A stretch of DNA of 36,018 nucleotides, from positions 1 through 36,018 of the forward strand of contig JAGOTN010000001.1 of the NCBI GenBank assembly GCA_018061745.1, in the 5' to 3' direction. The translations under genes and the position numbers were made by a program. Shown here piece by piece: positions 1 through 33,776 of the stretch. The DNA is from Minisyncoccota bacterium (GTDB lineage: Bacteria > Patescibacteriota > Minisyncoccia > Phycocordibacterales > JAACPR01). The notes under the pieces were generated by a model. That model worked only from the letters and a program-made list of their open reading frames with translations. It was not told the DNA's origin and ran no database searches. Within the stretch, counting starts at the first letter, position 1. Each line of letters starts with the position of its first letter.

Positions 1-126
1 TATGCTCCAGAATATGGAATGGGAGGTGATGCTATGATGGCTAAATCTGCTTCTGTGGCACCAGAATTGCCTGCAGGGGAGGAGAAGATTACAAGTAGGG
101 TGTATGTGACGTTTGAGATTAGATAG
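1..126 (+). CDS. C-terminal fragment of an unidentified protein (5' end lies outside the window)
   Basis: Frame 1 is open from base 1 to TAG at 124-126 (YAPEYGMGGDAMMAKSASVAPELPAGEEKITSRVYVTFEIR*). Palindromic element copy A follows directly. Confidence 0.4.
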   Translation, partial: YAPEYGMGGDAMMAKSASVAPELPAGEEKITSRVYVTFEIR

Positions 127-135
127 TACCGCAGT

Positions 136-227
136 ACAAAAATCCCCGAAAATTGTTCTCATCGTCAACGGCTTCGGCCTATGGCCTACAGATGTTTCCT
201 CAGAGAACAATTTTCGGGGATTTTTGT
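136..227 (+). repeat. Palindromic hairpin element, copy A: 25-bp perfect stem, 42-nt conserved core, T-run after it (terminator-like)
   Basis: 136-160 (acaaaaatccccgaaaattgttctc) is the exact reverse complement of 203-227. The core 161-202 is atcgTCAACGGCTTCGGCCTATGGCCTACAGATGTTTCctca. A tttt run follows. Confidence 0.85.
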
Positions 228-339
228 TTTATGTAAATATTTAATTTCATATTTACCTAATATATATAATATTGTATAGTCATGTAAATTTGGTTTGCAC
301 CTTAAACAACTACGCAAACTGCTTTCAATATAAAAATAA

Positions 340-798
340 ATGAATAATCAAATAATCGGTACTCACATTGTCGACTATGGTCAAACTTTAGAGGACATGA
401 TTGTCGCTGGTAATTACGACTGGCGAAATAGTAAACTTACGGCGGATCGTTTTCTAATCAATGGAAAAGGCCAGGTCGAATTTGAACATACTATCTTTCA
501 CTTTGATGAAGATATGCCTTATAGAGATGTAATAGTTAAAATTACGGTTACAGAGAGACAGAACCCCTGGTTACCAGCCAGGACGGAAAACCTTCTTATG
601 TATGGGGCTGAAAATCCTGACGAGCAAAGGAAATATCAAATAGTTGCACTTGGCTCAGTTGGAGTGGTCTTAGGTCGACTGCAAACACCCTGCCTAGATG
701 CTCATGATCTGAAGCGAACCCTGGACCTTTCTCGTATTGATCGTGATTTGGATTCGCTCAAACGCTTTCTTGCGGTTCGTGAAGTAGTTCGGAAGTGA
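340..798 (+). CDS. Hypothetical protein (152 aa)
   Basis: Clean ORF with no recognisable catalytic motif. It looks GC-richer than neighbouring genes. A weak hairpin plus T-run follows at about 821-838. Confidence 0.6.
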   Translation: MNNQIIGTHIVDYGQTLEDMIVAGNYDWRNSKLTADRFLINGKGQVEFEHTIFHFDEDMPYRDVIVKITVTERQNPWLPARTENLLMYGAENPDEQRKYQIVALGSVGVVLGRLQTPCLDAHDLKRTLDLSRIDRDLDSLKRFLAVREVVRK

Positions 799-891
799 AT
801 TACATTTAGCACTGGGCTGACAACCCTGTGTTTTTTTATTTTGAAAAAATCTTAATAACATGTAGTATCGGTTAAGAAAATTCTTTATCTT

Positions 892-1464
892 ATGAAAACA
901 TTAAAAGAACAGCTAGAAATTGTTAAGAGAAATTTTCCAAGTCTAAAATTGGAATCCATTAATCCGAACCTTGAAAAAGGTAACGCACTTGTAGTGAACT
1001 GGGGATTATTTTCCCCTGATTATTTAAATGCTCTAAAAATGGTTTTTGGAGTTGCTGGGATTGAGAGCGATCTGAATCCAAATTTTGACTATGGGTTTAG
1101 CACAGATAAATATACCGAGAACATGATCAATTATGGTAAATGTTTTGGTGTAGATATGGATTTTGGACAAAGTTGTACGAATGTTAGTCCAGAGTCATTT
1201 AATCGGTTTCATTATCAGGAACGTCAATTGTGTGGAGCCCCAGCTTTTATGGTTGCACTACAATTACTGATTCATCCCAACATTCTTTCTCATAGTGAAG
1301 ACTTGTCAATTATTTGTGTTGCAGACACTGCAAATAATCCAGGGTTTCGAGAATACCGAGCATCTCCAATCTTTTATTACAGAAAAGGAAAAGTACATTT
1401 TAGTCTTATTGGAATAGATAAGTCTTTTCCAGATTGTGGTTGTGCAACCCTTATTAATTTTTAG
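892..1464 (+). CDS. Hypothetical protein (190 aa), possibly a distant relative of the preceding ORF
   Basis: Clean ORF. A hairpin (gagccaa/ttggcgc) plus T-run follows at about 1489-1517. Confidence 0.55.
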   Translation: MKTLKEQLEIVKRNFPSLKLESINPNLEKGNALVVNWGLFSPDYLNALKMVFGVAGIESDLNPNFDYGFSTDKYTENMINYGKCFGVDMDFGQSCTNVSPESFNRFHYQERQLCGAPAFMVALQLLIHPNILSHSEDLSIICVADTANNPGFREYRASPIFYYRKGKVHFSLIGIDKSFPDCGCATLINF

Positions 1465-1531
1465 CCTACTTTATAGATTAATCAGAGTGTCGAGCCAAAA
1501 ACTTGGCGCTTTTTTCTTTAAAAACAAGGAT

Positions 1532-1560
1532 TTGACTCATAGAGGGCTATACTGTATGAT
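1532..1560 (+). promoter_or_regulatory. Sigma-70-like promoter for secE-nusG-rplK
   Basis: TTGACT (1532-1537), a 17-nt spacer, then TATGAT (1555-1560). A short hairpin ggcccc/ggggc plus T5 lies in the leader at about 1570-1588. Confidence 0.5.
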
Positions 1561-2357: not shown

Positions 2358-2780
2358 ATGGCTAAGAAAATAATGAAATTAATGAAGCTTCAAGTACCGG
2401 CAGGGAAAGCTGTTCCTGCGCCGCCACTTGGGCCTTCTTTAGGACAAGCTGGTATTAATATCAGTGAATTTATTAACAGATTCAATGCAGACACACAATC
2501 TCGAATGGGAGAAATCGTTCCGACTGTTGTAACTGTATATGAAGACCGAAGTTTTGATTTGGTTTACAAAAAGCCACCAGCAAGTTTTCTTGTTATGAGA
2601 GCAGCTGGACTTAAGGGTGGTTCTGGAAACAACACAACAAAGAAAGTTGGATCTATTACACAAGATCAACTGCGACAAATTGCAGAAGAGAAAATGGAAG
2701 ATCTAAGTGCGAATGATGTGGAAGCTGCGATGAAGATTATTGCGGGGTCTGCGCGTTCAATGGGTGTTGAAATAAAATAA
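2358..2780 (+). CDS. rplK: 50S ribosomal protein L11
   Basis: KLQVPAGKAVPAPPLGPSLGQAGINI is the L11 signature N-terminal domain. The length is 140 aa. Confidence 0.95.
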   Translation: MAKKIMKLMKLQVPAGKAVPAPPLGPSLGQAGINISEFINRFNADTQSRMGEIVPTVVTVYEDRSFDLVYKKPPASFLVMRAAGLKGGSGNNTTKKVGSITQDQLRQIAEEKMEDLSANDVEAAMKIIAGSARSMGVEIK

Positions 2781-2789
2781 AGTAAATAA

Positions 2790-2881
2790 ATAAAAACTCC
2801 AAAAAATTATTCTTCGCGTCAACGGCTTCGGCCGTAGGCCTGCAGATGTTTCCTTAAAGAATAATTTTTTGGAGTTTTTAT
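2790..2881 (+). repeat. Palindromic hairpin element, copy B: 25-bp perfect stem, 42-nt conserved core (terminator-like, downstream of rplK)
   Basis: 2790-2814 is the exact reverse complement of 2857-2881. The core 2815-2856 is cgcgTCAACGGCTTCGGCCGTAGGCCTGCAGATGTTTCctta. A T-rich tract follows. Confidence 0.85.
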
Positions 2882-2913
2882 GTTTTCAACATTATTTTTA
2901 TTTCAGTAGATGT

Positions 2914-2944
2914 TTTAAAAGAAAAATCCGCGGGTTAGGCGGAT
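2914..2944 (-). terminator. Intrinsic terminator ending the minus-strand thyA-folA-dcd-ORF97 operon
   Basis: The stem atccgc/gcggat (2926-2931 / 2939-2944) is followed on the minus strand by TTTTCTTTT. The stop codon of the 97-aa ORF lies in the loop. Confidence 0.6.
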
Positions 2945-3266: not shown

Positions 3267-3917
3267 TTAAGCCTTATGGTCTCTTTTTAATTCGGGGATT
3301 TTTCCTTCTCGCACTAAGTCAGATTCAGTTCTATCCTTTTCAGCATTTTTGAAATTTTGTTTTATAAAACCTTCGATAATATCTTTTTGATGATAGCGAC
3401 TTTCTTTTATTTCAGCTTTTTCATCTAGTTTTTCAAAAACAACTTGGCAGAATCTTTCTCCAGGATAAAGTTTAATTACTTGAGATTCTGTATTGTTTCG
3501 AATTGGAATTGCTAGTTGGCCCTTGTAACCAGAATCAACAATACCTGTCAGGTCTACTGAAAGTCCTTTTCTATTTGTAGATGAACGAGGGTAGAGAATT
3601 GCCATTAGATCATCTGGGATCCCAACTGTTTCAAGGGTAGAAGCTAAAACATATTCACCTGGAAGTAGGTCGAAAGTTTGAGATTTTTCTAATTCAATAA
3701 TATCGAAATAATCTGGACGGTCTTCACTTAGGTGATCAATGTTTAAAGCCACGCGACCTTTTTCTGTGAGTTGCCATCTTTTTGGTAAAAGAAAAGTGTA
3801 ACCAAGTCTTAAATCTATTGCGTGTGCTTGAATTTGAAATTCATCAAGGTTTGGTTCAAATAAAATTTCTCCAGCATTTATTTTTTCTAGTATTTGTTTT
3901 TTAGTTAAGATAGACAT
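3267..3917 (-). CDS. dcd: dCTP deaminase family protein
   Basis: The N-terminus MSILTKKQILEKINAGEILFEPNLDEFQIQAHAIDLRLG is typical of Dcd. A dUTPase-like beta fold is suggested by SVDLTGIVDSGYKGQLAIPIRN. At 216 aa it is slightly long. Confidence 0.85.
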   Translation of the reverse strand: MSILTKKQILEKINAGEILFEPNLDEFQIQAHAIDLRLGYTFLLPKRWQLTEKGRVALNIDHLSEDRPDYFDIIELEKSQTFDLLPGEYVLASTLETVGIPDDLMAILYPRSSTNRKGLSVDLTGIVDSGYKGQLAIPIRNNTESQVIKLYPGERFCQVVFEKLDEKAEIKESRYHQKDIIEGFIKQNFKNAEKDRTESDLVREGKIPELKRDHKA

Positions 3918-3918
3918 T

Positions 3919-4416
3919 TTATTTTTGAACTCGATAATTTAATAATATCGTACTTGGAGATAAGTTTGTACTTGATATTAATTCTAGTTTTTGTCCTAAT
4001 TTCTGTGGCAAAAAGGGAACTCCTTCACCAAACTCAATATCTTCTTCTGTCAGGAATACTTCGTCTACTAGGTTTTTTTCCATAAACAGTTTATATATTT
4101 CAGCCCCTCCGCAAATAGCTATTTCTTGTTCACCTTCTGATTGAAGTCTTTTGATTAGTTCTTCTGGAGATTCATTTGTTGTTTCAACACCCTCAATGTG
4201 TAAATTTTGTCGACTCATAATAATGTTTCGTCTTTCTTTTAAAGGTTTCCCAAACGTTTCAAAAGTTTTTCTTCCCATGACAACAACGCCAGCTTCTTTT
4301 GTTTTTTCTACAAAAAATTTCTTATCCTCAGCACTAGTCCAATTCATAGAATTTTGTTCGGCGGATTTTGCAATGAAACCATCTTTTGATACAGCTGCAA
4401 TGATAAAAACTTTCAT
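3919..4416 (-). CDS. folA: Dihydrofolate reductase
   Basis: The pattern IIAAVSKDGFI...MNWTSAEDKKFF...VVVMGRKTFETFGKPLKERRNIIMS...ICGGAEIY fits DHFR. It starts 4 nt after the thyA-like stop. Confidence 0.85.
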   Translation of the reverse strand: MKVFIIAAVSKDGFIAKSAEQNSMNWTSAEDKKFFVEKTKEAGVVVMGRKTFETFGKPLKERRNIIMSRQNLHIEGVETTNESPEELIKRLQSEGEQEIAICGGAEIYKLFMEKNLVDEVFLTEEDIEFGEGVPFLPQKLGQKLELISSTNLSPSTILLNYRVQK

Positions 4417-4420
4417 AAAA

Positions 4421-5257
4421 TTAAAGCGCTATTTTTAAACCTTTAATGGCAGGCATTGGTTCGTATTGTTTTTGTATTTGAGAAACAATTTCTTCGAGAA
4501 GGGATTCATCTTTTTGTTCTGATCTTTCGAAAGAATTTTCTGGAAGAGTTAGTGTGATTGGTTTGTGATTATTTGTTCTGGAAATAAGTTCTCGAGCTGC
4601 TTCATAATGATTTTCATAAATGTGTGCGTTTGAAATTGAGTGAGAGTATGTTCCAACTTTCACCCCAAGTCTTTGCGCCAAAACATATTGCAAGAAACAA
4701 AAACCAGCGATATCAAAAGGCGCTCCCAGAATCATATCGTTTGAGCGAACTATATTATGCATGTGAAGTTTTCCGGCAATAATATTTATTGTGAAAGTGT
4801 ATGGGCAGGGAACATTGGCTTTTTTCTTTAATGAAAGTCCGTCTTGTGCAGGATCCCATGCGATCACAACTCCGTGTCGTGAGCTAGGTTCTTTTTCTAA
4901 AAGTTCTACTAAAAGTTTTATTTGATCTCGTCCGAAATGTTTTCGCCAACGATATCCGTACGCAACTGTTACGACATCATTTGGATTTGTGAAAGAATCC
5001 CAAATTTTTGTGTGGTTTCTCAAAAAGTCTGCAGGTTTTCGTGCACCAGATAAAAACCACATTTGTTCAACAATTGGACCAGTAACAGGAATTTTTCTAA
5101 GTGTTAAAAGTGGAAAACCATCTTCTTCAGGATTGATTTTAAAATGTAATCCCGGAATCGCAGATGTTTCAAGACCAGTTCTTTCTGAGAATTCTTTGTA
5201 GCCGTTTTCAAGAATGTCTTTTATTAGGCCTTGGTAGATTTGATCAAATTTTGTCAT
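4421..5257 (-). CDS. thyA: Thymidylate-synthase-family (ThyA-like) pyrimidine nucleotide C5-methylase with an atypical active site (PCP, PFD)
   Basis: ThyA blocks present: ERTG, DGFPLLTLRK, EQMWFLSG, YGYRWR, DQIKLL, catalytic Cys in VPCP (codon 4805-4807), RSND, AHIYENH, and the TS-like C-terminal tail YEPMPAIKGLKIAL. The invariant Asn in LGxPFNIA is Asp here (LGAPFDIAGF, codon 4712-4714). Confidence 0.85.
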   Translation of the reverse strand: MTKFDQIYQGLIKDILENGYKEFSERTGLETSAIPGLHFKINPEEDGFPLLTLRKIPVTGPIVEQMWFLSGARKPADFLRNHTKIWDSFTNPNDVVTVAYGYRWRKHFGRDQIKLLVELLEKEPSSRHGVVIAWDPAQDGLSLKKKANVPCPYTFTINIIAGKLHMHNIVRSNDMILGAPFDIAGFCFLQYVLAQRLGVKVGTYSHSISNAHIYENHYEAARELISRTNNHKPITLTLPENSFERSEQKDESLLEEIVSQIQKQYEPMPAIKGLKIAL

Positions 5258-5318
5258 ATCAGTATTTACATTATAATGGTTAGAATATAATCTGCATTAT
5301 AGACACTTTAAGATATTT

Positions 5319-5828
5319 ATGGAAAAGAAAGAAATCAAATACCCATATTTGCCAGGAGGCAGGGAAATCAAATACGTTTCGGCGGATAATCCGTTTATGG
5401 TTGAAGCCAAAAAAGTTCAACAAACCATGTCTACAGATAAGTATTTCTCAACAGGGGCTGTTGTTGTGAAAGACGGAGTGATTGTTGGAAAGGGTGCTAA
5501 CCAATCTCTTTTGCGTACAAAATGGATGATTGAAGCTCACAAAAAATGGGCTTGTATTCGAAGATGGTTCAATATCCCTTCTGGTCAGAAGTATTGGATG
5601 TGTCCTGGATGTTCTCCTTCTAGTCAGCATGCTGAAACTCGTGCTGCAATAGACGCCGAGAAGAAAGGTTTGTCTAAAGACGCTGACATGTATCTTTATG
5701 GTCACTGGTGGTGTTGTGCTCCTTGTTGGGATGCTGTGATTCATGCGGGAATTAAAGATGTGTATCTTCTCGAGGGAAGTGAGATTCTTTTTGATAAAAA
5801 TCATCCAGACAATATTGTTGGTAAATAA
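5319..5828 (+). CDS. comEB: Deoxycytidylate (dCMP) deaminase, ComEB family
   Basis: The zinc motifs HAE (SQHAETRAAI) and PCxxC (CAPCWDAV) are present, together with the extra Cys cluster (CPGC) typical of dCMP deaminases. It is transcribed divergently from the thyA-like gene. Confidence 0.8.
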   Translation: MEKKEIKYPYLPGGREIKYVSADNPFMVEAKKVQQTMSTDKYFSTGAVVVKDGVIVGKGANQSLLRTKWMIEAHKKWACIRRWFNIPSGQKYWMCPGCSPSSQHAETRAAIDAEKKGLSKDADMYLYGHWWCCAPCWDAVIHAGIKDVYLLEGSEILFDKNHPDNIVGK

Positions 5829-5839
5829 CTTTAGCCGAC

Positions 5840-5863
5840 AGAGGTTTAAAAACCTCTTTTTTA
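5840..5863 (+). terminator. Intrinsic terminator after the dCMP deaminase gene
   Basis: The stem agaggtt/aacctct has loop taaa and is followed by TTTTTT. Confidence 0.7.
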
Positions 5864-5946
5864 TTTTAAATTTTAAGGAAATAAAAATGCGACTCACTTT
5901 TTGGGTGGTCGCAATGTTGGGTTATCATATCTTCAAGGAAACCCCT

Positions 5947-6546
5947 TCAGGAGCTTCTTTTACTATACTCAGGATCCATTTTAAATTTCCAGTCTGGAAG
6001 TTTGGATTTTGCTTTAGCGTGATCGAAGTAGACTTCGTAGCCTGACTCCTCACATAATTTGTGTAGTAGATCAAACTTCTTAAACAAGTCGTACAAGTAA
6101 CGCAATTTTTCTTGCTCCAATGCAATCAGTCCGGGTTTTGATGGTTTGTAGGTTTGTGTCCAAAGACAGATTTCAGCAGCCTTCACTAGGCTATGAAATG
6201 CATACTCTTTGAATTTATCGAGTGTGGTGATGGTTTTAATTTTAGCACCCATTATTTCGAAGAGCTTGTAAGAATCTCTTTTGAAATCCCAGATAATTAA
6301 CATCATATAGACTATTAGTATTAGTCCTGACACGGAAATGAATCCCAAGATGAGACATGTAACTAACATCAGTACTTCGTATTGGCGCAAGAACGCATAT
6401 ACGAAGACGATAACGATTGCCGGAACGATTGTTTTTAGGAGGTTTGGAAAGATTGCTTTCTTTGCTCTTATTAAACGACCTGCGTGCCAACTTTGTAACA
6501 GGCAGACATTAGTCGTGCCCTCCAATAACATGTTTAATACTGTCAT
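5947..6546 (-). CDS. Hypothetical membrane protein (199 aa, two predicted TM helices plus a soluble C-terminal domain)
   Basis: The hydrophobic stretches are IVPAIVIVFVYAFL and LMLVTCLILGFISVSGLILIVYMMLII. An AAAGG ribosome-binding-like motif lies upstream. The overlapping ORFs in this interval are shadows. Confidence 0.55.
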   Translation of the reverse strand: MTVLNMLLEGTTNVCLLQSWHAGRLIRAKKAIFPNLLKTIVPAIVIVFVYAFLRQYEVLMLVTCLILGFISVSGLILIVYMMLIIWDFKRDSYKLFEIMGAKIKTITTLDKFKEYAFHSLVKAAEICLWTQTYKPSKPGLIALEQEKLRYLYDLFKKFDLLHKLCEESGYEVYFDHAKAKSKLPDWKFKMDPEYSKRSS

Positions 6547-6675
6547 TTTTTCTACCTTTCAATGCTGAATTGTTTATTTCAAAAGCGTAGGGTTTCGGCC
6601 TCTCTGCAAAATGGTTTTCGGCCACTTGCGGATTTTTTCGCTTGTATGTGATTGTCAGCTTCAATCTTCTTTGCA

Positions 6676-6704
6676 AAATTAGAATATATTAAGTGTTGTG
6701 TCAA
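6676..6704 (-). promoter_or_regulatory. Candidate promoter for the membrane-protein gene
   Basis: On the minus strand: TTGACA (6704-6699), a 17-nt spacer, then TAATTT (6681-6676). The leader carries the direct repeat GGCCGAAA(A)CC (plus-strand 6591-6600 and 6613-6623). Confidence 0.35.
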
Positions 6705-6711
6705 TGAAAAG

Positions 6712-6745
6712 TTAAAAGCCGCGGACTTTGTCCGCGGCTTATTTG
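6712..6745 (-). terminator. Intrinsic terminator (GC-rich 11-bp stem) after the 64-aa ORF
   Basis: aagccgcggac (6716-6726) pairs with gtccgcggctt (6730-6740) around loop ttt. A T-run follows on the minus strand. Confidence 0.7.
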
Positions 6746-6933
6746 ATTCTTTTTGATATAACTACCCAACTATAGAATGCAATATTCAACTTTCTGAATG
6801 GTTTGAAGTTTTCAGAGACATGCTCGTGGTTAACTTGAATATGTTCTTGAGAATCTCTTTTTTCCTCAATAACATCTGGAATTGGATCCAAACACATCAA
6901 GCAAATTGACTGGTTAAATCCTTCAGTTTTCAT
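6739..6933 (-). CDS. Hypothetical small protein (64 aa)
   Basis: A short ORF with a strong terminator immediately after it. No motif was recognised. Confidence 0.35.
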   Translation of the reverse strand: MKTEGFNQSICLMCLDPIPDVIEEKRDSQEHIQVNHEHVSENFKPFRKLNIAFYSWVVISKRIK

Positions 6934-7032
6934 CTATTAGCCATAATAGCATTTTTTGTTAAAATGTATTTATAAATTAACTACCATGATTTAACTCTGC
7001 GACAGCCAAATTATTTAACTAACATTACTTTT

Positions 7033-8205
7033 ATGAAAGATATTGAAATTGCAGATTTAATAAAGAAAGAAAACGAGAGACAAAAGAGTGTAATAAATTT
7101 AATTGCTTCAGAAAATTATGTTTCAGAGGATGTTCTAGAAGCACTTGGTTCAAAATTTAATAACAAATATGCAGAAGGATATCCGAATGCTAGATACTAC
7201 GGTGGAAATGAAGTTGTAGATGAAGTTGAATTACTAACACAAAGTCGTGCACTAAAAACTTTTGGATTAAATGAAAATGATTGGGCTGTGAATGTGCAAG
7301 CGCTTTCTGGTTCACCTGCAAACTTGGCAGTTTATTTTGCACTTGTTTCAAAAGGAGGAAAAATTATGGGAATGCGATTGGATCACGGAGGACATTTAAC
7401 TCACGGACACAAAGTTTCTGCGACAGGGGGTTTTTATGAATCAATTCAATACGGAGTTGATAAAGAAACTGAACTTTTAAATTTTGAAGAAATAGAAAAA
7501 ATTGCAGTTGAAGCGAAGCCTGAAATTATTGTTGCGGGATTTACCGCTTATCCAAGAATGATTGATTGGAAAAAGTTTAGAGCTATTGCAGATAAAGTTG
7601 GTGCTTATTTAATGGTGGATATGTCTCATATTTCAGGACTTGTTGCTGGAGGAGTTTATGAATCTCCGTTTCCTTATGCAGACATTGTCACAACAACAAC
7701 TCACAAAACTTTACGAGGTCCTCGAAGTGCTTTAATTTTTGCAAAAAAAGATGACAGAAAATTGAACGAAAAAATAAACAAAGCAGTTTTTCCAGGTCTT
7801 CAAGGTGGTCCGCATATGAATCAAATTGCGGGAGTCGCGGTTGCTTTAAAAGAAGCGAGTACAGATGAGTTTAAAAAATATGCAGAGCAAGTTGTGAAGA
7901 ATGCAAAAACACTTGCAGATACTTTGAGTGAATTGGGTTGGAGAATTGTTTCTGGTGGGACTGATTCACATTTAATTTTAGTTGATACTTGGATGGATGG
8001 AAAAGGAATTTCTGGAAAAGAAGCGAGTGATCGATTAGAGAAAGAGGGAATTATTGTGAACAAGAATACAATCCCAAATGACACTCGAAGTCCTTCTGAT
8101 CCATCTGGAATTCGACTTGGAACTCCTGCTGAAACTACAAACGGAAAAAACGAAAAAGATTTTGAAGAAATTGCAAAACGAATTGATGAGATTTTGCGAA
8201 AATAA
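7033..8205 (+). CDS. glyA: Serine hydroxymethyltransferase
   Basis: The blocks LIASENYVS, YAEGYPNARYYGG and SGSPANLAVY are present, along with the PLP-lysine block TTTTHKTLRGPR. Confidence 0.95.
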   Translation: MKDIEIADLIKKENERQKSVINLIASENYVSEDVLEALGSKFNNKYAEGYPNARYYGGNEVVDEVELLTQSRALKTFGLNENDWAVNVQALSGSPANLAVYFALVSKGGKIMGMRLDHGGHLTHGHKVSATGGFYESIQYGVDKETELLNFEEIEKIAVEAKPEIIVAGFTAYPRMIDWKKFRAIADKVGAYLMVDMSHISGLVAGGVYESPFPYADIVTTTTHKTLRGPRSALIFAKKDDRKLNEKINKAVFPGLQGGPHMNQIAGVAVALKEASTDEFKKYAEQVVKNAKTLADTLSELGWRIVSGGTDSHLILVDTWMDGKGISGKEASDRLEKEGIIVNKNTIPNDTRSPSDPSGIRLGTPAETTNGKNEKDFEEIAKRIDEILRK

Positions 8206-8207
8206 AT

Positions 8208-8630
8208 ATGCAAATTAAATTCAAAAAATTAAATGAAAATGCGATTGCTCCAAAATACGCATACAAATTTGATGCGGGCATGGATTTATTTTGTTTAGAA
8301 GATGTTTCAATTGCACCAAATGAAAGAGTTCAGATTTCAACTGGAATTGCTATGGAAATCCCAGAAAAATATGTAGGTTTGATTTGGGATAAAAGTGGTT
8401 TGTCTCATAAGTCAGGATTGAAAACTGTTGGCGGTGTTGTAGATTCCCAGTATCGTGGAGAAATAAAAGTTGGAATGATAAATTTGAGTGGTGATGTTTT
8501 TAAATTTGAAGCGGGACAAAAAATCGCACAAATGTTAATTCAAAAAGTAAAACAAATTGATTTAATAGAATCTGCCGAGCTTTCAGACACCGACCGCGGG
8601 GAAGGGGGGTTTGGAAGCACTGGAAAATAA
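8208..8630 (+). CDS. dut: dUTP diphosphatase (dUTPase)
   Basis: AGMDL, VVDSQYRGEI and the C-terminal RGEGGFGSTG motif are present. The length is 140 aa. Confidence 0.95.
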   Translation: MQIKFKKLNENAIAPKYAYKFDAGMDLFCLEDVSIAPNERVQISTGIAMEIPEKYVGLIWDKSGLSHKSGLKTVGGVVDSQYRGEIKVGMINLSGDVFKFEAGQKIAQMLIQKVKQIDLIESAELSDTDRGEGGFGSTGK

Positions 8631-8639
8631 ATTTAAAAA

Positions 8640-9335
8640 ATGGAAACAAAAAATAAAAGAGGAAAATTTATTGTGATAGATGGAACCGATGGTTCAGGAA
8701 AAGGTACGCAAACAGAATTACTGGTTGCTGCACTTAAAGATCAGGGAGTTAAAGTTGTTGTTACTGATTTTCCTCAATACGGAAAACCTTCTGCTATTTT
8801 TGTTGAAAAATATTTAAGAGGTGAATATGGAAGCGCGGATGAAGTTGGTGCAAAAAGAGCTTCGCTTTTTTATGCTCTGGATAGATTTGATGAATCTAAA
8901 CAGATGAAACAATGGTTGGATGAAGGATTTTGTATTGTGAGTAATAGGTATGTTTCTGCAAATATGGGACATCAGACTGGAAAAATAAAAGATCCAGTTG
9001 AACGAGATAAATTTTTAGATTGGCTGAATGAATTGGAATTTGAAATTTTTGAAATTCCAAAACCAGATGAAGTTATTTTTCTATATGTTCCACCTGAAGT
9101 TGGGCAAAAACTTGTTGATGAAAAATCTGCTAGAGAATATACAAAAGGCGCAAAAAGAGACATTCACGAGGCTGATTTGAATCATTTAAAAAATGCATCA
9201 GAAGCATATAAATATGTTGCAGAGAAATTTAATTGGAAAACAGTGATCTGTGCTCCAAATGGTGAGATGATGAGTAGAGAGGAGATTCATAAAATTATTT
9301 TAGAAATCTCAAAAAAGATAATTGAAATAAATTAG
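8640..9335 (+). CDS. tmk: Thymidylate (dTMP) kinase, eukaryote/archaeal-like type
   Basis: The P-loop is FIVIDGTDGSGKGTQ, followed by DFPQYGKPSA...YLRG and SNRYVSANMGHQ. Confidence 0.85.
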   Translation: METKNKRGKFIVIDGTDGSGKGTQTELLVAALKDQGVKVVVTDFPQYGKPSAIFVEKYLRGEYGSADEVGAKRASLFYALDRFDESKQMKQWLDEGFCIVSNRYVSANMGHQTGKIKDPVERDKFLDWLNELEFEIFEIPKPDEVIFLYVPPEVGQKLVDEKSAREYTKGAKRDIHEADLNHLKNASEAYKYVAEKFNWKTVICAPNGEMMSREEIHKIILEISKKIIEIN

Positions 9336-11515: not shown

Positions 11516-11527
11516 ATAGACTTTCAA

Positions 11528-11556
11528 AGCGCGCCCTGCAAGGGCGCGCTTTTTTC
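11528..11556 (+). terminator. Intrinsic terminator
   Basis: The 9-bp stem agcgcgccc/gggcgcgct is followed by TTTTTT. Confidence 0.85.
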
Positions 11557-12004: not shown

Positions 12005-12033
12005 TTGAAACAAAGCCCTAAATATCGTATGCT
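12005..12033 (+). promoter_or_regulatory. Candidate promoter of ileS (leaderless geometry)
   Basis: TTGAAA (12005-12010), a 17-nt spacer, then TATGCT (12028-12033). ATG 12041 lies 7 nt after the -10. Confidence 0.45.
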
Positions 12034-12040
12034 GTATTTT

Positions 12041-15000
12041 ATGACAAATGAAGCAGGGGAAGACAATAAGAGTCAAGTTGCTTTGAAAGAAGAGCAAATA
12101 TTAGACTTTTGGAATCAAAATAAAATTTTCGAGAAATCTGTTGAAAGAGAGACTAAAAAAGGTGATTTCCTTTTTTATGATGGGCCACCATTTGCAACAG
12201 GACTTCCTCATTATGGGCACATTCTTGCTGGAACAATAAAAGACATAATTCCTCGTTATAAAACTATGAATGGACATAGAGTTGTTCGTCGATGGGGTTG
12301 GGATACTCACGGGCTTCCAATTGAAAACTTAATTCAAAAAGAAAATAATCTTAAAACAAAACATGATGTAGAAAAATTTGGAATTAAAAATTTCAATGAA
12401 GCTGCACGAGCAAATGTTTTTCGTTATCTAGATGAATGGAAAAAAATAATTCCACGAACTGGGCGTTGGGTAGATTTTGAAGACAATTACATAACAATGG
12501 ATTCAAAATATATGCAGTCTGTTTGGTGGATGTGGAAGACTTTATATAAAAAAGGTTTAGCCTATGAAGGATTCAAGACGATGCACATTTCTCCTTTGCT
12601 TGAGACAGCGCTTTCAAACTTTGAAGTAAATCAAGCATATAAAGATATTACTGATATTTCTGCAACAGTTAAATTTGAACTAGTAGATGAAAAGGGAACT
12701 TTTGTTTTGGCTTGGACAACAACTCCTTGGACGCTTCCTGGAAACGTTGCTTTAGCGATAAATAAAAATGTTGAATATGTAAAAGTAAAATTTGAGGAAT
12801 CATTTTATATTGTTGCAAAAGATTTAGCTGAAAAAGTTTTTGGAGAAAAAGAACATCAAATTATTTCTGAAGTTTCTACTGAAGAATTAGTGGGGAAGAA
12901 ATACACTCCTCCTTTTGATTATTATGTTAATGATACTAATTTAGAAAATCGTGAAAACGGTTGGAAAATTTATAATGGAGATTTTGTTACAACAGAAGAT
13001 GGAACTGGAGTTGTTCATATTGCTCCAGCTTTTGGTGAAGACGATTTAAATTTGGGTAAAGAAAATAATTTACCTTTTGTTCAACATGTAAAAATTGACG
13101 GAACAATCAAACCAGAAGCAAAAGATTTTGCAGGTCTTCAAGCAAAACCAAAAGAAGATCCAACTCAAACCGATGTTGAATTTATTAAAGCACTCGCACA
13201 CAAAGGACTTCTTTTTGATAAGAAAAAATATACTCACTCATATCCACATTGTTGGAGAACGGACGCACCACTTTTGAATTACGCGATGTCTTCTTGGTAT
13301 ATAAAAGTTACAGACATTAAAGATAAAATTGTTAAAGAAAATGAAAAAGTAAATTGGGTTCCTGATTTTGTTGGAAGTAATCGTTTTGGTAATTGGTTGA
13401 AAGATGCAAAAGACTGGTCTGTTTCTCGTGCTCGATATTGGGGAACTCCTATTCCAATTTGGAAATCTGAAGACGAAACAGAAATCGCCGTAATCGAATC
13501 AATTTCAGAATTGAGAGAAAAAACAAAAAGCTCAAATACTTTTGTAATAATGCGTCATGGTGAAGCCGATCATAATCTAGAAAACAGAATTTCTGATAGT
13601 AATAATTCTCCAAGTCATTTAACTCAAAGAGGAAAAGATGATGTGGCTCGGGTAGGGGAGAAATTTGCAGATGAAAAATTTGATGCAATTTATTGTTCTC
13701 CACTTTTTAGAACAAAAGAAACTGCAGAAATTGTTGCAGAGAAAATTGGTTTTCCAAAAGAAAATATTATTGAAGATGAAAGATTGAGAGAGGTTCAGAC
13801 TGGTTTTGATGGTCGTCCAATTACAGATTACAGAAGTTATTTTTCATCAAATTCTGAAAAATATGATAAAGCCGCGCCAACAGGTGAGAGTCTTTTGGAT
13901 TTGAAAAAAAGAGCTGGAAATTTTTTGAAAGAAATTGATTCTCAGAATGAAGGAAAAAGAATTTTAGTTATTACACATGAATACACAACATGGTTGATGT
14001 TCTCTGCGAACGAAGGTTTTGATAAAAAAGAAACCATCGAAATAAAAGAAGATAAAGAAGAATTTATCGAGACAGGAAAAACTTTGGAAATAATTCCAAG
14101 CAGACTTCCTGTAAATGATAATTTTGAAATTGATTTACACCGACCATATATCGATGATGTGACTTTTGTTCAAAACGGAAAAATAATGAAAAGAATCCCA
14201 GATGTTTTTGATGGATGGATTGATTCTGGTTCAGTTCCTTTTGCTTCAAATTTTTATCCTGCAAACAAAGAAAGATTTAATCCTGAATCTGGTTTGTTTA
14301 AAAAAACAATAAACTACCCAGCTGACTTTATTGCTGAAGGTTTGGATCAAACTCGAGGATGGTTTTATTCTTTAATTGTTTTGAACACAGCTTTATTTGG
14401 GCATACACCATATAAAAACGTAATAGTTAATGGGCTTGTTTTAGCCGAAGACGGAAGAAAGATGTCTAAAAGTTTAAATAATTATCCAGACATCAATATT
14501 ATTTTTGATAAATATGGTGCGGATGCAATGAGATATTTCTTGGTATCTTCACAAGCTGTAAAATCAGAAGATTTATTATTTTCAGAAAAAGGAGTTGATG
14601 AAGTTTCTAAAAAACTAATTGCCAGACTAAACAATGTTGTTTCATTTTATGAAATGTACAAAGGTGTTTTAGGAGATGTGTCTGTAAAAGAAAGTTCAAA
14701 TGTTTTGGACAAATGGATTCTTGCCAGACTTTCTGAATTGGAAAAACAAATTACCAAATCGCTCGATGCTTATGAGATTGATAAAGCCTCGAGACCTATC
14801 ATGGATTTTGTTGATGATTTATCAACTTGGTATATTCGTCGTTCTCGAGATCGCTTCAAAAACGAGGAAGATGAAGATGCGAAATCTGCAGCAGCAACAA
14901 CAAAATTTGTTTTGAAAAACTTGGCAAAATTGATGGCGCCATTCACTCCGTTTATCGCTGAAGATATTTATCTAAAAGTTCGAGACGAAAATGAATCGGA

Positions 15001-15532
15001 AAGTGTACACCTAGAATCATGGCCGAACCTAAAAAATCTAGATGAAAAAATTATTTCTGAAATGCAAACACTTCGAGAAACAGTAACTCGAGCTCTTGAA
15101 GAGAGAACAAAGGTTGGAATTAAAGTTCGACAACCGCTTGCTTCTGTAACAATTAAAAAACAAGAATTAAAAAGCAAAAATGATTTGTTGGATATTTTGA
15201 AAGACGAATTAAATGTTAAAGAGGTTATGTTTTCTGAAACTCAAGAAGTTGAAATTGTTTTAGATACAAAAATAACTGAAGAATTAAGACTAGAAGGGAA
15301 TGCTCGAGAATTAATTCGTTTTATTCAACAACTTCGAAAAACTTCGGGATTGCAACCAAGTGACGAAATAAAAGCCACCGTTTCAAAGTCTGCAGAAGTT
15401 GAAGTTGGAAGTTTTGTAGATGAAATTAAAAAATCAGTTCGAGCTACACAATTTGCTTTTGAAGAAAACGACGGAGAGTCTTTGCAGATCGGTGAAGTTT
15501 CAATAAATGTAAAAATCAAAAAGATTTCATAA
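12041..15532 (+). CDS. ileS: Isoleucyl-tRNA synthetase (type 2 / eukaryote-like) with an inserted histidine-phosphatase domain
   Basis: Class I HIGH (GLPHYGHIL), the CP1 editing region (TTTPWTLPGN), WSVSRARYWGTPIPIW, KMSKS (GRKMSKSLNNYPD) and the anticodon-binding region are all present. The start is taken at ATG 12041 (MTNEAG...) rather than the track's TTG at 12005, which coincides with the -35 box. Confidence 0.92.
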   Translation: MTNEAGEDNKSQVALKEEQILDFWNQNKIFEKSVERETKKGDFLFYDGPPFATGLPHYGHILAGTIKDIIPRYKTMNGHRVVRRWGWDTHGLPIENLIQKENNLKTKHDVEKFGIKNFNEAARANVFRYLDEWKKIIPRTGRWVDFEDNYITMDSKYMQSVWWMWKTLYKKGLAYEGFKTMHISPLLETALSNFEVNQAYKDITDISATVKFELVDEKGTFVLAWTTTPWTLPGNVALAINKNVEYVKVKFEESFYIVAKDLAEKVFGEKEHQIISEVSTEELVGKKYTPPFDYYVNDTNLENRENGWKIYNGDFVTTEDGTGVVHIAPAFGEDDLNLGKENNLPFVQHVKIDGTIKPEAKDFAGLQAKPKEDPTQTDVEFIKALAHKGLLFDKKKYTHSYPHCWRTDAPLLNYAMSSWYIKVTDIKDKIVKENEKVNWVPDFVGSNRFGNWLKDAKDWSVSRARYWGTPIPIWKSEDETEIAVIESISELREKTKSSNTFVIMRHGEADHNLENRISDSNNSPSHLTQRGKDDVARVGEKFADEKFDAIYCSPLFRTKETAEIVAEKIGFPKENIIEDERLREVQTGFDGRPITDYRSYFSSNSEKYDKAAPTGESLLDLKKRAGNFLKEIDSQNEGKRILVITHEYTTWLMFSANEGFDKKETIEIKEDKEEFIETGKTLEIIPSRLPVNDNFEIDLHRPYIDDVTFVQNGKIMKRIPDVFDGWIDSGSVPFASNFYPANKERFNPESGLFKKTINYPADFIAEGLDQTRGWFYSLIVLNTALFGHTPYKNVIVNGLVLAEDGRKMSKSLNNYPDINIIFDKYGADAMRYFLVSSQAVKSEDLLFSEKGVDEVSKKLIARLNNVVSFYEMYKGVLGDVSVKESSNVLDKWILARLSELEKQITKSLDAYEIDKASRPIMDFVDDLSTWYIRRSRDRFKNEEDEDAKSAAATTKFVLKNLAKLMAPFTPFIAEDIYLKVRDENESESVHLESWPNLKNLDEKIISEMQTLRETVTRALEERTKVGIKVRQPLASVTIKKQELKSKNDLLDILKDELNVKEVMFSETQEVEIVLDTKITEELRLEGNARELIRFIQQLRKTSGLQPSDEIKATVSKSAEVEVGSFVDEIKKSVRATQFAFEENDGESLQIGEVSINVKIKKIS
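13532..14110 (+). other. Histidine phosphatase (phosphoglycerate-mutase-like, RHG) domain inserted in-frame within ileS
   Basis: The motifs are FVIMRHGEADHN (catalytic RHG, Arg codon 13553-13555), LTQRGKDD, YCSPLFRTKETA, ERLREVQTGFDGRP and ILVITHEY (second His). It lies between the IleRS blocks GTPIPIW...ISELREK and DLHRPYIDD (D at 14132). Confidence 0.8.
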
Positions 15533-19486: not shown

Positions 19487-20557
19487 ATGAAAGACTCTCT
19501 GGATAAACAAATATCAATCAACATCACCTCGGGCGCTATCTTTAAAGCCGGTGCATTTTGCGCACTTTTTTGGTTTTTATGGGTAATTAGAGATTTAATT
19601 TTAGTTCTACTCGCTTCAGTTATTATTGCTTCTTCTGTAAATCCAATCGCAAATTTTATTTCTAAAAAAACTAAAGCCCCAAGACTCGTTTCAGTTTTAG
19701 GTCTTTATGCTGGAGTGATTCTTTTCTTCATTGGAATTTTCTCAATATTCCTTCCACCTTTTATCACAGATATAAAAACCACTTTCCATCAAATTCCTTT
19801 TTACATTGATTCATTGAGTAATGAAAAGATAAACGAAGTCCCAGGTTTTGATATTCTATTTTCTTCTATAAGAGATATGCAAATAACAGAAGATGTTCTA
19901 AATACTGTTACAAGTACTTTTTCAGGAGCGACTTTTGGATTCCTTACAACAGCCTCAGCAGTGTTTGGAGGTGCATTATCATTTCTTCTTATTGTAATTA
20001 TTTCTTTTTATCTATCTGTTCAAGAAGACGGAGTGAGAGATTTCTTGAGAATTGTTACACCTTTAAAGCACGAAAAATATATTCTTGATTTATGGAAGAG
20101 AAGTCAAAGAAAAATCGGACTTTGGATGCAAGGACAACTTCTTCTGGCTGTTATTGTTGGAGTTCTAACATTTATTGGACTTTCTGTAATTGGTGTTCCA
20201 AATGCTATCTTGTTGTCATTCATCGCAATGGTTCTAGAATTGATACCACTTTTTGGTCCAATTTTGGCAGCTATCCCTGCTGTTTCTTTAGCTCTTTTGA
20301 GTGGAGGGGTAACTCTAGGATTAATAACTTTATGTCTATTTATAATTATTCAACAATTCGAAAATCATCTTATTCAGCCGTTGGTTGTTAAAAAGATTGT
20401 AGGTATTCCAGTTTTGGTTTCTATATTCGCAATTATCATCGGAGCAAAAATCGCTGGATTCTTAGGAATCTTAATCTCTGTACCCATCGCTGCTGTTGTG
20501 ATGGAATTTTTAGGTGATCTTGAAAAGAAAAAGACAGCTGCAAACATTAGAGATTAA
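19487..20557 (+). CDS. AI-2E family transporter (PerM/YhhT-like permease)
   Basis: Multiple TM helices are present with the conserved C-terminal pattern FENHLIQPLVVKKIVGIPVLV. The start is taken at ATG 19487 (MKDSLDK...); the track's TTG at 19451 is less likely. Confidence 0.8.
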   Translation: MKDSLDKQISINITSGAIFKAGAFCALFWFLWVIRDLILVLLASVIIASSVNPIANFISKKTKAPRLVSVLGLYAGVILFFIGIFSIFLPPFITDIKTTFHQIPFYIDSLSNEKINEVPGFDILFSSIRDMQITEDVLNTVTSTFSGATFGFLTTASAVFGGALSFLLIVIISFYLSVQEDGVRDFLRIVTPLKHEKYILDLWKRSQRKIGLWMQGQLLLAVIVGVLTFIGLSVIGVPNAILLSFIAMVLELIPLFGPILAAIPAVSLALLSGGVTLGLITLCLFIIIQQFENHLIQPLVVKKIVGIPVLVSIFAIIIGAKIAGFLGILISVPIAAVVMEFLGDLEKKKTAANIRD

Positions 20558-25073: not shown

Positions 25074-25206
25074 AAAATATAATCTTGGGTATTTCGTACC
25101 CGCGATAAAACAAAACAGAGATGCAAATGCATCTCTGTTTTGTTTTTCGCTTTGCTCGCCGTTTAGGACGGCTCCGCAATGTGCTCAGTACCCAAGATTA
25201 TATTTT
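25074..25206 (+). terminator. Nested hairpin-in-hairpin downstream of rpsR; the inner hairpin is an intrinsic terminator
   Basis: The outer 18-bp perfect stem pairs 25074-25091 with 25189-25206. The inner 19-bp perfect stem pairs 25107-25125 with 25128-25146 and ends in a T-run. GGGTA (25087-25091) can alternatively pair with TACCC at 25097-25101. Confidence 0.7.
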
Positions 25207-25863: not shown

Positions 25864-25947
25864 AAATATCTCCAAATTATTATTTTCTGAAACATCTGCA
25901 GACCGAAGGTCGAAGCCGTTGAAGAAAATAATAATTTGGAGATATTT
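25864..25947 (-). repeat. Palindromic hairpin element, copy C: 25-bp perfect stem, 34-nt conserved core, downstream of efp on the minus strand
   Basis: 25864-25888 is the exact reverse complement of 25923-25947. Read on the minus strand, the core is TCAACGGCTTCGACCTTCGGTCTGCAGATGTTTC. Confidence 0.85.
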
Positions 25948-25960
25948 AGTTTTGAACTAT

Positions 25961-26539
25961 TTAAACCCTTTCTGTATATTGCCCAGTCTCTGTATTAACT
26001 CGAATAACATCACCAACCTCCACAAAAGTCGGAGTTGTAACCATCGCTCCAGTTTCAACTTTTACTTTTTTATCACCACCACTAGCTGTACTTCCTTTGA
26101 TACTTGGTGGAGCTTCAATAACTTTCAATTCAACTTTAATTGGCAGGGAAAGGCCAATAATTCTTTCGCCAAAATATAGAGCGTCATATTCAGTGTCTTC
26201 CTTCATGTACATAATTTTTTCAGCTAAAACTGATTCATCTACTTCAAATCTTTTACTTTTATCATGAGGATCTGAAAACCAATATTCAGTTACACCGCTT
26301 TGCCGATTAAACTTATTGAAAGAATACTTAACAGTCTTCTTTTCAATATAAGCTTCTTCTACGGTGTCTGCATAATGAAAAGTATGCTGACGTGTTCCAC
26401 CAGATATTAGGTTTCTTAACTTTGTTTGGTTAACTGGTTTTCTTTGTTGTTTTCTAGAAACATGAGATTCTAAAACTTCGTATGGATCTCCATCGATAAT
26501 AATAAAACCCCTTTCTTTAACTTCGTTGTAATTTAACAT
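25961..26539 (-). CDS. efp: Elongation factor P
   Basis: FIIIDGDPYEVLESHV...TKLRNLISGG and the C-terminal block IKGSTASGGDKKVKVETGAMVTTPTFVEVGDVIRVNTETGQYTERV are present. The start is taken at ATG 26539 (MLNYNEV). Confidence 0.9.
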   Translation of the reverse strand: MLNYNEVKERGFIIIDGDPYEVLESHVSRKQQRKPVNQTKLRNLISGGTRQHTFHYADTVEEAYIEKKTVKYSFNKFNRQSGVTEYWFSDPHDKSKRFEVDESVLAEKIMYMKEDTEYDALYFGERIIGLSLPIKVELKVIEAPPSIKGSTASGGDKKVKVETGAMVTTPTFVEVGDVIRVNTETGQYTERV

Positions 26540-33692: not shown

Positions 33693-33743
33693 AAACTACT
33701 TATAGTGAATTAAATTTCACATAACTAGCGATTATTTAAAAAC

Positions 33744-33776
33744 AAAAAGCCGCCCGCAAGGGCGGCTTTTTGTTTT
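33744..33776 (+). terminator. Intrinsic terminator after the surface-protein gene
   Basis: The stem gccgccc/gggcggc has a GCAA loop, is flanked by an A-run and is followed by TTTTTGTTTT. Confidence 0.85.

Follow-up and report, generated by a model that had tools for sequence, protein, structure and literature searches.

Repetitive extragenic palindromic (REP) elements are palindromic repeats of 20-40 bp with an unpaired tag, either GTAG or CGTC, of which TGTC and CCTC are frequent forms (PMC3733652). Those of the CGTC type have stems of 8-9 bp that open with two A-T pairs, loops of 4-5 nt and short CCA tails; REPs frequently form inverted dimers, often of unlike partners, lie downstream of open reading frames (ORFs) in unidirectional or convergent arrangement, and are probably transcribed as RNA hairpins (PMC3733652). 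Here, we describe a repeated element that occurs three times in a 36,018-nt stretch of DNA from a Minisyncoccota bacterium (assembly GCA_018061745.1, contig JAGOTN010000001.1, positions 1 to 36,018; hereafter the window), each copy consisting of a conserved core at the apex of a long, terminator-like palindrome. We propose, with about even confidence, that it belongs to a REP-like family of small palindromic repeats residing at terminator apices in Paceibacteria-type bacteria of the Candidate Phyla Radiation (CPR). Bacteria of this radiation have tiny genomes and little characterised non-coding biology.

The resemblance to REPs extends to both architecture and habit. The element is a small imperfect palindrome (34-36 nt) with a variable loop, present in three copies in 36 kb; it is found downstream of ORFs, is probably transcribed as an RNA hairpin and has genome-specific variants, termed types I and II below. 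Its core stem opens with two A-U pairs (A-T in DNA), and a tetranucleotide resembling the REP tag stands directly before AACGG in 15 of the 24 type I copies at terminators (CGTC in nine, CCTC in six). Window copies A and B fall within this set, copy C reads CTTC, and type II lacks the TC. Copies in the leaders of the threonyl-tRNA synthetase gene thrS carry ANTC at the tag position, or NTAG on the other strand, and their pairs are inverted heterodimers of non-identical partners. The differences from REPs concern the stem, which is longer (10 pairs) and interrupted by a G.U pair, a G.A mismatch and an internal loop; the tail, which is UCC (or UCG or UCA) and not CCA; and the dimers, which are tail-to-tail where CGTC REPs are mostly head-to-head. 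The element also sits precisely in the middle of a perfect and much longer palindrome, that of a terminator, a habit not described for REPs in the searched literature, where REPs are likewise unreported in the CPR lineage, and no RAYT (REP-associated tyrosine transposase) or other transposase is known for it. We use the term REP-like for it, without assigning it to a CGTC family. An earlier, preliminary description of the window could match the element to no known repeat family; this stands insofar as Rfam 15 holds no match, but architecture and habit, the CGTC/CCTC tag included, place REP elements closest.

Other described systems share single traits. Intrinsic two-way terminators have the same A-run, GC-rich stem base and T-run, the same placement 9-30 nt past stop codons and also past rRNA and tRNA genes, and a hairpin at which RNA-library coverage ends, as seen for the element on one contig; however, an ordinary terminator loop measures 3-8 nt, whereas the element is a structured insert of 40-50 nt in a hairpin of ~90 nt. 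Correia/NEMIS repeats in Neisseria and ERIC repeats in enterobacteria are co-transcribed, non-coding and form long hairpins that can end transcription, make the mRNA more stable or act as substrates of RNase III or RNase E, and they feature conserved terminal inverted repeats and target-site duplications. The present element is likewise a small, non-coding, hairpin-forming repeat, but, unlike these miniature inverted-repeat transposable elements, it is conserved at its centre, has outer arms made of local sequence and shows no duplication. Integron attC sites have the reverse layout, with conserved outer R''/R' boxes around a variable centre. IS1397 and ISKpn1 insert into the loops of REP palindromes and so also place DNA at the centre of an existing palindrome, but they are full insertion sequences with transposase genes, whereas the insert here is 40-50 nt and non-coding.

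Copies in the window and the wider family

The pattern TCAACGGCTTCG-N12-CAGATGTTTC has three matches in the window, which are the cores of copies A, B and C (Table 1). The chance expectation is zero, as no match arose across 100 shuffles with three mismatches tolerated. Each core is enclosed by perfect inverted arms of 25 bp, and stretches of ~100 nt fold with z-scores of -7.5 to -10 relative to shuffled sequence on both strands. The three copies with an asymmetric conserved core and perfect arms, as first described, are thereby borne out, and so is the covariation of the small apical hairpin (GGCC/GGCC in copies A and B, GACC/GGTC in copy C). Each of the three begins 9-13 nt past a stop codon and is oriented as sense to the gene that precedes it, and copy A recurs identically in seven other samples.

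Sharing between copies is limited to the inner 7-12 nt of the arm (e.g., the motif AAAATTATTCTT), and the outer arms differ; once a few junction and inner-arm bases are counted, the repeated unit comes to ~50-70 nt. The compensated divergence of the arms that was initially reported holds for the window copies, but the differences between them comprise indels as well as substitutions, and perfect pairing is not a family-wide trait: mismatches or bulges occur in some copies at terminators (L018 and L042; L numbers denote related loci) and in most copies in thrS leaders.

Table 1. Coordinates of element copies, their neighbouring genes and the terminators used for comparison. Positions refer to the window unless a related locus is named.
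Feature	Position	Strand	Details
SIMPL-domain gene, 3' end	1..126	+	PF04402 on full gene in L137/L146; stop 10 nt before copy A
Copy A, whole hairpin	136..227	+	left arm 136-160, junction 161-164 (ATCG), core 165-198, junction 199-202, right arm 203-227
Copy A core	165..198	+	TCAACGGCTTCG-GCCTATGGC-CTACAGATGTTTC; CTACAG here, CTGCAG in other copies
rplK (ribosomal protein L11)	2358..2780	+	PF03946, PF00298; stop 9 nt before copy B
Copy B, whole hairpin	2790..2881	+	left arm 2790-2814, junction CGCG 2815-2818, core 2819-2852, junction 2853-2856, right arm 2857-2881
Copy B core	2819..2852	+	TCAACGGCTTCG-GCCGTAGGC-CTGCAGATGTTTC; CGTC tag (CG + TC) in front
Hypervariable intergenic stretch (element and spacer)	2794..2940		~17% different from the L136/L139 strains
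Plain two-way terminator (comparator)	6716..6740		11-bp palindrome without mismatch; belongs to another repeated family, GCCGCGGAC-N3-GTCCGCGGC
Plain terminator (comparator)	11526..11552	+	perfect 12-bp stem
Plain terminator (comparator)	25107..25146		perfect palindrome including A and T runs
Copy C, whole hairpin	25864..25947	-	arms 25864-25888 and 25923-25947, core 25889-25922; no junction loops except a U.C mismatch
efp (elongation factor P)	25961..26539	-	PF08207, PF09285; stop 13 nt before copy C
Plain terminator palindrome (comparator)	33739..33776		perfect 17-nt arms, A and T runs included
Sites of the GCCGCGGAC-N3-GTCCGCGGC hairpin	window 6716-6740; L160 ~13095-13125; L162 ~14350-14378, ~20055-20085; L164 ~14030-14056

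Beyond the window, related copies number ~50 and are confined to CPR metagenome-assembled genomes (MAGs) and metagenomes, as a search for further copies in related genomes and bins, one of the checks suggested at the outset, revealed; those at gene 3' ends are mostly sense. An exact-pattern scan of species-representative genomes returned at least 115 matches against ~48 expected by chance, of which only those in CPR MAGs had the full core with flanking arms; most of the 115 were chance or coding matches. The metagenome scan contributed 20 further loci. Viral contigs, searched with two patterns, gave no match and no sign of a phage origin. The window itself derives from a Paceibacteria-type CPR bacterium found in wastewater and freshwater; the closest RplK match to its protein is 94% identical and named Paceibacterota.

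A covariance model built on 37 copies detects 53 in the collected CPR loci. By setting, there are 28 terminator-type copies, all three window copies among them, and 24 copies in thrS leaders. Comparison of the element with Rfam 15 at gathering thresholds yielded no family in the window or in 14 related loci, and at E<=10 only generic long-hairpin miRNA models appeared, far below threshold. Across 19 related loci, Rfam matches were limited to rRNA and tRNA genes and a weak T-box in the thrS leader. Neither Rfam 15 nor the searched literature (CPR repeats, thrS motifs) describes the element. An origin of the core from rRNA or tRNA was rejected, as similarity extends to at most 11 nt, and K-turn, loop E, hammerhead, hairpin ribozyme and CRISPR repeat were dropped by eye because their defining nucleotides are absent. 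One locus (L125, 1-220), at the start of a 1.2-kb metagenome contig, has perfect arms of 92 nt around the core; it was set aside as most likely an assembler fold-back at the palindrome.

Structure of the core

The core unit of 34-36 nt forms an imperfect hairpin, 5'-UC AACG G CU UC G-(variable apical hairpin of 3-5 bp)-C UGC AG A UGUU UC, with 10 supported pairs interrupted by a G.A mismatch and a 2x3 loop and with a separate, variable and covarying apical stem. In the 53-copy alignment, 98.7% of cells in the core are paired, a value that leans towards structure since the alignment was fitted to the model. Two-sided changes affect six of the 10 core pairs; the observed values were equalled in none of 500 shuffles, and sliding the 3' partners along the alignment destroyed the signal. 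Compensation has arisen independently, with A4-U31 replaced by G-C in nine copies and U9-A26 by C-G in type II. Because these independent variants compensate so cleanly, the core is a structure that is maintained in single-stranded form.

One pair, G6.U29, never varies: all 53 copies have G.U there, directly beside the G.A mismatch. This invariant pair and the conserved internal loops would probably offer a contact for a genome-encoded factor, and they are the starting point for the main rival to a REP-like origin, namely a dedicated cis-acting RNA module. According to this explanation, the core is the site of a trans-acting protein or RNase, marks the 3' ends of highly transcribed units and forms part of the thrS leader; copies are inherited vertically, and the core type changes by co-evolution with the factor. 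The conservation of the loops and of the G.U beside the G.A argues for such a module, as do the changes from type I to type II (loss of the UC/UC 2x2 loop on both sides, U-A to C-G, and C-G to U.G), which keep the pairing. No candidate factor has emerged so far, and the DNA-level events described below also count against the module; we consider it unlikely overall.

Terminator setting and the origin of the arms

The arms of the 28 terminator-type copies are 15-28 bp long and mostly perfect, with the GC clamp outermost. Their anatomy runs from an A-run through the GC clamp to an AT-rich extension and, in mirror image, down to a T-run. The 12-nt windows at the bases of their arms contain a mean of 7.8 A (5' side) and 7.7 T (3' side), compared to 3.2 and 3.5 for the thrS-leader copies. 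The protein genes upstream are rplK (window, L096), rplL, rplT (two genomes), efp, tig, ndk, rnj, gyrB, rpsA and clpB, along with genes for an ABC ATPase and a sugar transferase; further copies follow RNA genes, 33 nt past 5S rRNA and 45 nt past tRNA-Tyr. A terminator consensus scan skips the element copies solely because their loop exceeds 8 nt.

Relative to the nearest upstream transcription unit, 19 copies are sense, one is clearly antisense (after ftsZ in L128), two are ambiguous (convergent genes) and two are unknown. The element had been taken to lie always in the sense orientation at a gene 3' end; this is true of the three window copies and is the prevailing pattern across the family, but the antisense copy and a 5'-leader subclass in both orientations depart from it. 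The proposed terminator or 3'-untranslated-region setting, in turn, fits both the A-rich and T-rich arm bases and the RNA-library coverage. On one contig of a library labelled RNA-seq, depth is ~1000 over 5S, 19 over the trailer and element, and 0-1 past the element, a profile that at contig level fits transcription through the element and then termination at it. A sense-transcribed element would cap a terminator hairpin of ~90 nt and so create a very stable 3' end that terminates transcription and blocks 3' exonucleases. The sense bias and the occurrence of the element in RNA-library contigs are both in keeping with a dedicated RNA module. A count of G.U versus A.C mismatches, intended to reveal the transcribed strand, shows no bias in the terminator copies (24 G.T, 21 A.C).

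The perfection of the arms had suggested a copying step at the DNA level. In its explicit form, this alternative holds that the core is mobile and that its insertion copies one flank in inverted orientation, so that the arms are born perfect. Arms are indeed site-unique and perfect in young copies, differences between alleles are always mirrored on the other arm, and identical cores occur between different arms. Yet the plain terminators of the window, palindromes of 11-19 bp with their A and T runs included, are just as perfect, and those of relatives are alike. The arms themselves have the anatomy of terminators, from the outermost GC clamp to the A and T runs, and inner-arm motifs such as AAAATTATTCTT are common to several copies, which indicates that part of the arm travels with the core. 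In addition, an orthologous site in L162 has both arms without a core, an empty site seen once. Because plain terminators are equally perfect, a core-less hairpin exists in L162 and imperfect copies occur elsewhere, no special arm-copying step is needed, and we regard this explanation as highly improbable. Rather, the arms are, by their sequence anatomy, best described as the organism's ordinary two-way intrinsic terminators in which the core has replaced the loop. Their perfection would come from selection on the hairpin, as in all terminators here, possibly helped by template switching within the palindrome.

A second, unrelated terminator hairpin with A and T runs, GCCGCGGAC-N3-GTCCGCGGC, recurs at different intergenic sites both within and between genomes (Table 1). 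Terminators in these genomes seem to be drawn from repeat families in general, and the gene ends look like assemblies of repeated hairpin modules that can be exchanged.

Turnover between strains and species

Two strains, L136 and L139, encode an RplK that is 100% identical to that of the window within a secE-nusG-rplK-ORF97 block of 99.5% DNA identity, and the 150 bp holding copy B and its spacer are hypervariable between them and the window (Table 1). At the rplK site, the arms of the two alleles differ at ~6 of 25 positions and by indels, with every change mirrored on the opposite arm; the L136 arms resemble those of window copy A more than those of copy B. One sample contains the two alleles at comparable depth. 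As point mutation followed by compensation cannot work so fast, the alleles at this site were swapped by exchange of a segment.

Comparison across species reveals that the core type is uniform within a genome and patchy over the tree. Type I cores follow both the SIMPL gene and rplK in the window, L136 and L096, and type II cores (CGAACGGTCCTCG...CTGCGGATGTTCTC) occupy both sites in L160 (RplK 94% identical) and L164 (87%). In L162 (89%), neither site has a core. Its rplK site is a perfect 22-bp hairpin, ATAAAATCCCCGGAAAATTATC-tttgaa-GATAATTTTCCGGGGATTTTAT, with arms homologous to the L136 allele, and its SIMPL site is a short plain terminator. The element is thus optional at these positions, which can hold plain hairpins instead.

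Cores also recur with other arms around them. In four samples, the exact 34-mer that forms the core of copy C, along with its apical hairpin, is 2-15x deeper than its flanks and is joined to other arms in the same samples (e.g., AAAAATCCCCGAATAATATTTTCT). The efp contigs of six samples all end inside the core because it is an exact 34-mer repeat, and the break coincides with the jump in depth. Inversion of the core was rejected as a cause of these breaks for the same reason. In practical terms, an exact 34-nt repeat of this kind breaks short-read assemblies at gene ends. We infer from these comparisons that the core, with 7-12 nt of inner arm, has been copied between terminators.

These observations bear on the RNA module from both sides. 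Occupancy of the same two terminators in the window, L160 and L164 with different core types, and their joint vacancy in L162, would suit vertical inheritance with a co-evolving factor. Against it, the element is dispensable, it is unlikely that selection alone would shift tens of sites in step, and both allele replacement between 99.5%-identical strains and the presence of the same core between different arms are DNA-level events.

Copies in thrS leaders

The 24 thrS-leader copies have imperfect stems, no A or T runs, and the junction AGA-N-UC...UC-N-CUA. All are located in the thrS 5' leader, past a T-box-like leader and its terminator and ahead of the start codon; the seven adjacent genes tested all have ThrRS domains. 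The T-box is visible by eye, with a weak Rfam score (21 bits against a threshold of 93). At 11 thrS loci, cores form convergent pairs, and one mRNA therefore holds one sense and one antisense core; in eight of the pairs, the partners are unlike (CAACGG/GAUGUU versus CAGCGG/GAUGCU). No obvious Shine-Dalgarno sequence precedes the start codon in L127 (4114-4605, minus strand) and other thrS loci.

When thrS loci were picked by ThrRS similarity alone (73-76% identity), a T-box leader was present and the core absent in all four. The core as an obligatory thrS regulator or a ThrRS/tRNA mimic was rejected on this basis and because its apical loops are not conserved. The absence from leaders sampled blind also counts against a dedicated RNA module, as does the presence of both core orientations inside one thrS mRNA. 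A search with ThrRS homologues for the thrS leader of a type II genome found no match on type II contigs.

Transition-type mismatches in the thrS-leader stems are strongly skewed on the core-sense strand (A.C 36 versus G.T 9), although the orthologous hairpins counted are not independent. The A.C to G.T split is 21 to 4 in hairpins sense to thrS and 13 to 4 in antisense ones and, since the bias is the same in both, wobble is tolerated on a strand that is defined by the core and not by thrS. On this wobble-tolerant strand, the unit opens with NTAG, often GTAG, while the conserved G.U of the core belongs to the other strand.

Such a pattern raises a further alternative, in which the hairpin on one strand is a single-stranded-DNA site recognised by an HUH/RAYT-type or other structure-specific DNA enzyme. 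Its role would be in mobilisation or in a chromosomal task past heavily transcribed units, as proposed for REPs and bacterial interspersed mosaic elements (BIMEs). The tolerance of wobble on one strand whichever way thrS runs, the NTAG opening followed by an imperfect palindrome as in GTAG REPs, the inverted heterodimers in thrS leaders, and the concentration of copies past the most transcribed genes are consistent with this. However, the strand favoured in thrS leaders is opposite to the one with the conserved core G.U, the terminator-type copies show no comparable mismatch bias, and no Y1-transposase domain occurs among the annotated genes of the fetched loci, which represent a small part of each genome. 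We consider a DNA site of this kind improbable.

In two comparisons, similarity of the leader hairpins does not follow that of ThrRS: L127 and L123 have nearly identical leader hairpins with ThrRS only 72% identical, and L134 has a ThrRS 81% identical to that of L123, yet quite different hairpin arms. Recombination within thrS or transfer of a leader cassette may account for this pattern.

Assessment of the REP-like reading

Overall, the element is a real, structured, multi-copy repeat. We read it as a form of REP that is nested in an unusual place and that, puzzlingly, also resides in T-box thrS leaders; any function beyond that of a hairpin cap is, on sequence comparison, a proposal. Copies would spread or homogenise at the DNA level along one of two routes, insertion into the centres of palindromes or short-patch conversion among terminators whose AT-rich arms are similar.

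Several observations weigh against a REP-like family. In three genomes, cores of two types occupy the same two of at least eight terminators within 20 kb of synteny, and such a pattern fits inherited occupancy with co-evolution of a trans-acting factor better than repeated random insertion. Neither a target-site duplication nor a clean filled-versus-empty junction was found, and no direct repeats adjoin the element; its flanks are inverted complements right up to the core. No transposase or RAYT was seen, with no PF01797/Y1 among the precomputed domains of ~150 neighbouring genes on these genome fragments, and copy number, from a few to tens in each genome, looks modest for REPs. The invariance of the G.U and the marked predominance of sense copies point tentatively to a specific role at the RNA level. 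Finally, ThrRS divergence among core-bearing leaders reaches 56% identity, a long persistence for junk, and the mismatch skew in the thrS leaders finds no explanation in the model.

A broader scheme would combine some of these features: in Paceibacteria, the core may supply the cis-acting side of a two-part system that is so far undescribed, in which a genome-encoded RNA-binding or processing protein, or a structure-specific DNA enzyme, reads the irregular helix with its G.U and G.A. The core would mark part of the T-box thrS leader as well as the ends of the most transcribed units (rRNA operon, tRNAs and ribosomal-protein genes), with types I and II as co-evolved variants, and sense and antisense cores could pair, linking thrS to bulk transcription. 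This scheme is speculative, and we judge it distinctly unlikely.

If gene ends in these genomes are indeed built from exchangeable modules, their terminators would evolve as a shared pool and not individually at each site, which would also provide a sequence marker for strain-level variation. If the core is the recognition site of a factor, it would give uncommon access to the metabolism of RNA 3' ends, or to the processing of DNA hairpins, in a lineage that is uncultured.

Neighbouring genes and other features

The window genome is a mosaic. Despite the 99.5%-identical secE-nusG-rplK-ORF97 block, the flanks of the window (1-1540) and L136 (1-2200) are non-homologous: in place of the two unknown ORFs of the window (340-798 and 892-1464), L136 carries a DNA methylase gene and an ORF of 260 aa. 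Downstream of rplK, the next gene is not rplA; the window has a convergent 97-aa ORF (2781-2934 region), and L096, L162 and L164 have a DUF1189 gene.

A compact dTMP/nucleotide cluster at 3267-9335 comprises dcd, folA, thyA, dCMP deaminase, glyA, dut and a dNK/thymidylate kinase gene, and its synteny is kept in relatives. The IleRS gene at 12005-15532 is long (1175 aa), and domains of its orthologues in syntenic relatives include a histidine phosphatase (PF00300) inside the synthetase. Large insertions in the rRNA genes of CPR bacteria are often reported, and L044 (614-4748) is a likely case: its 23S rRNA match spans 4135 nt compared to a 2925-nt model, which implies large insertions in the gene.

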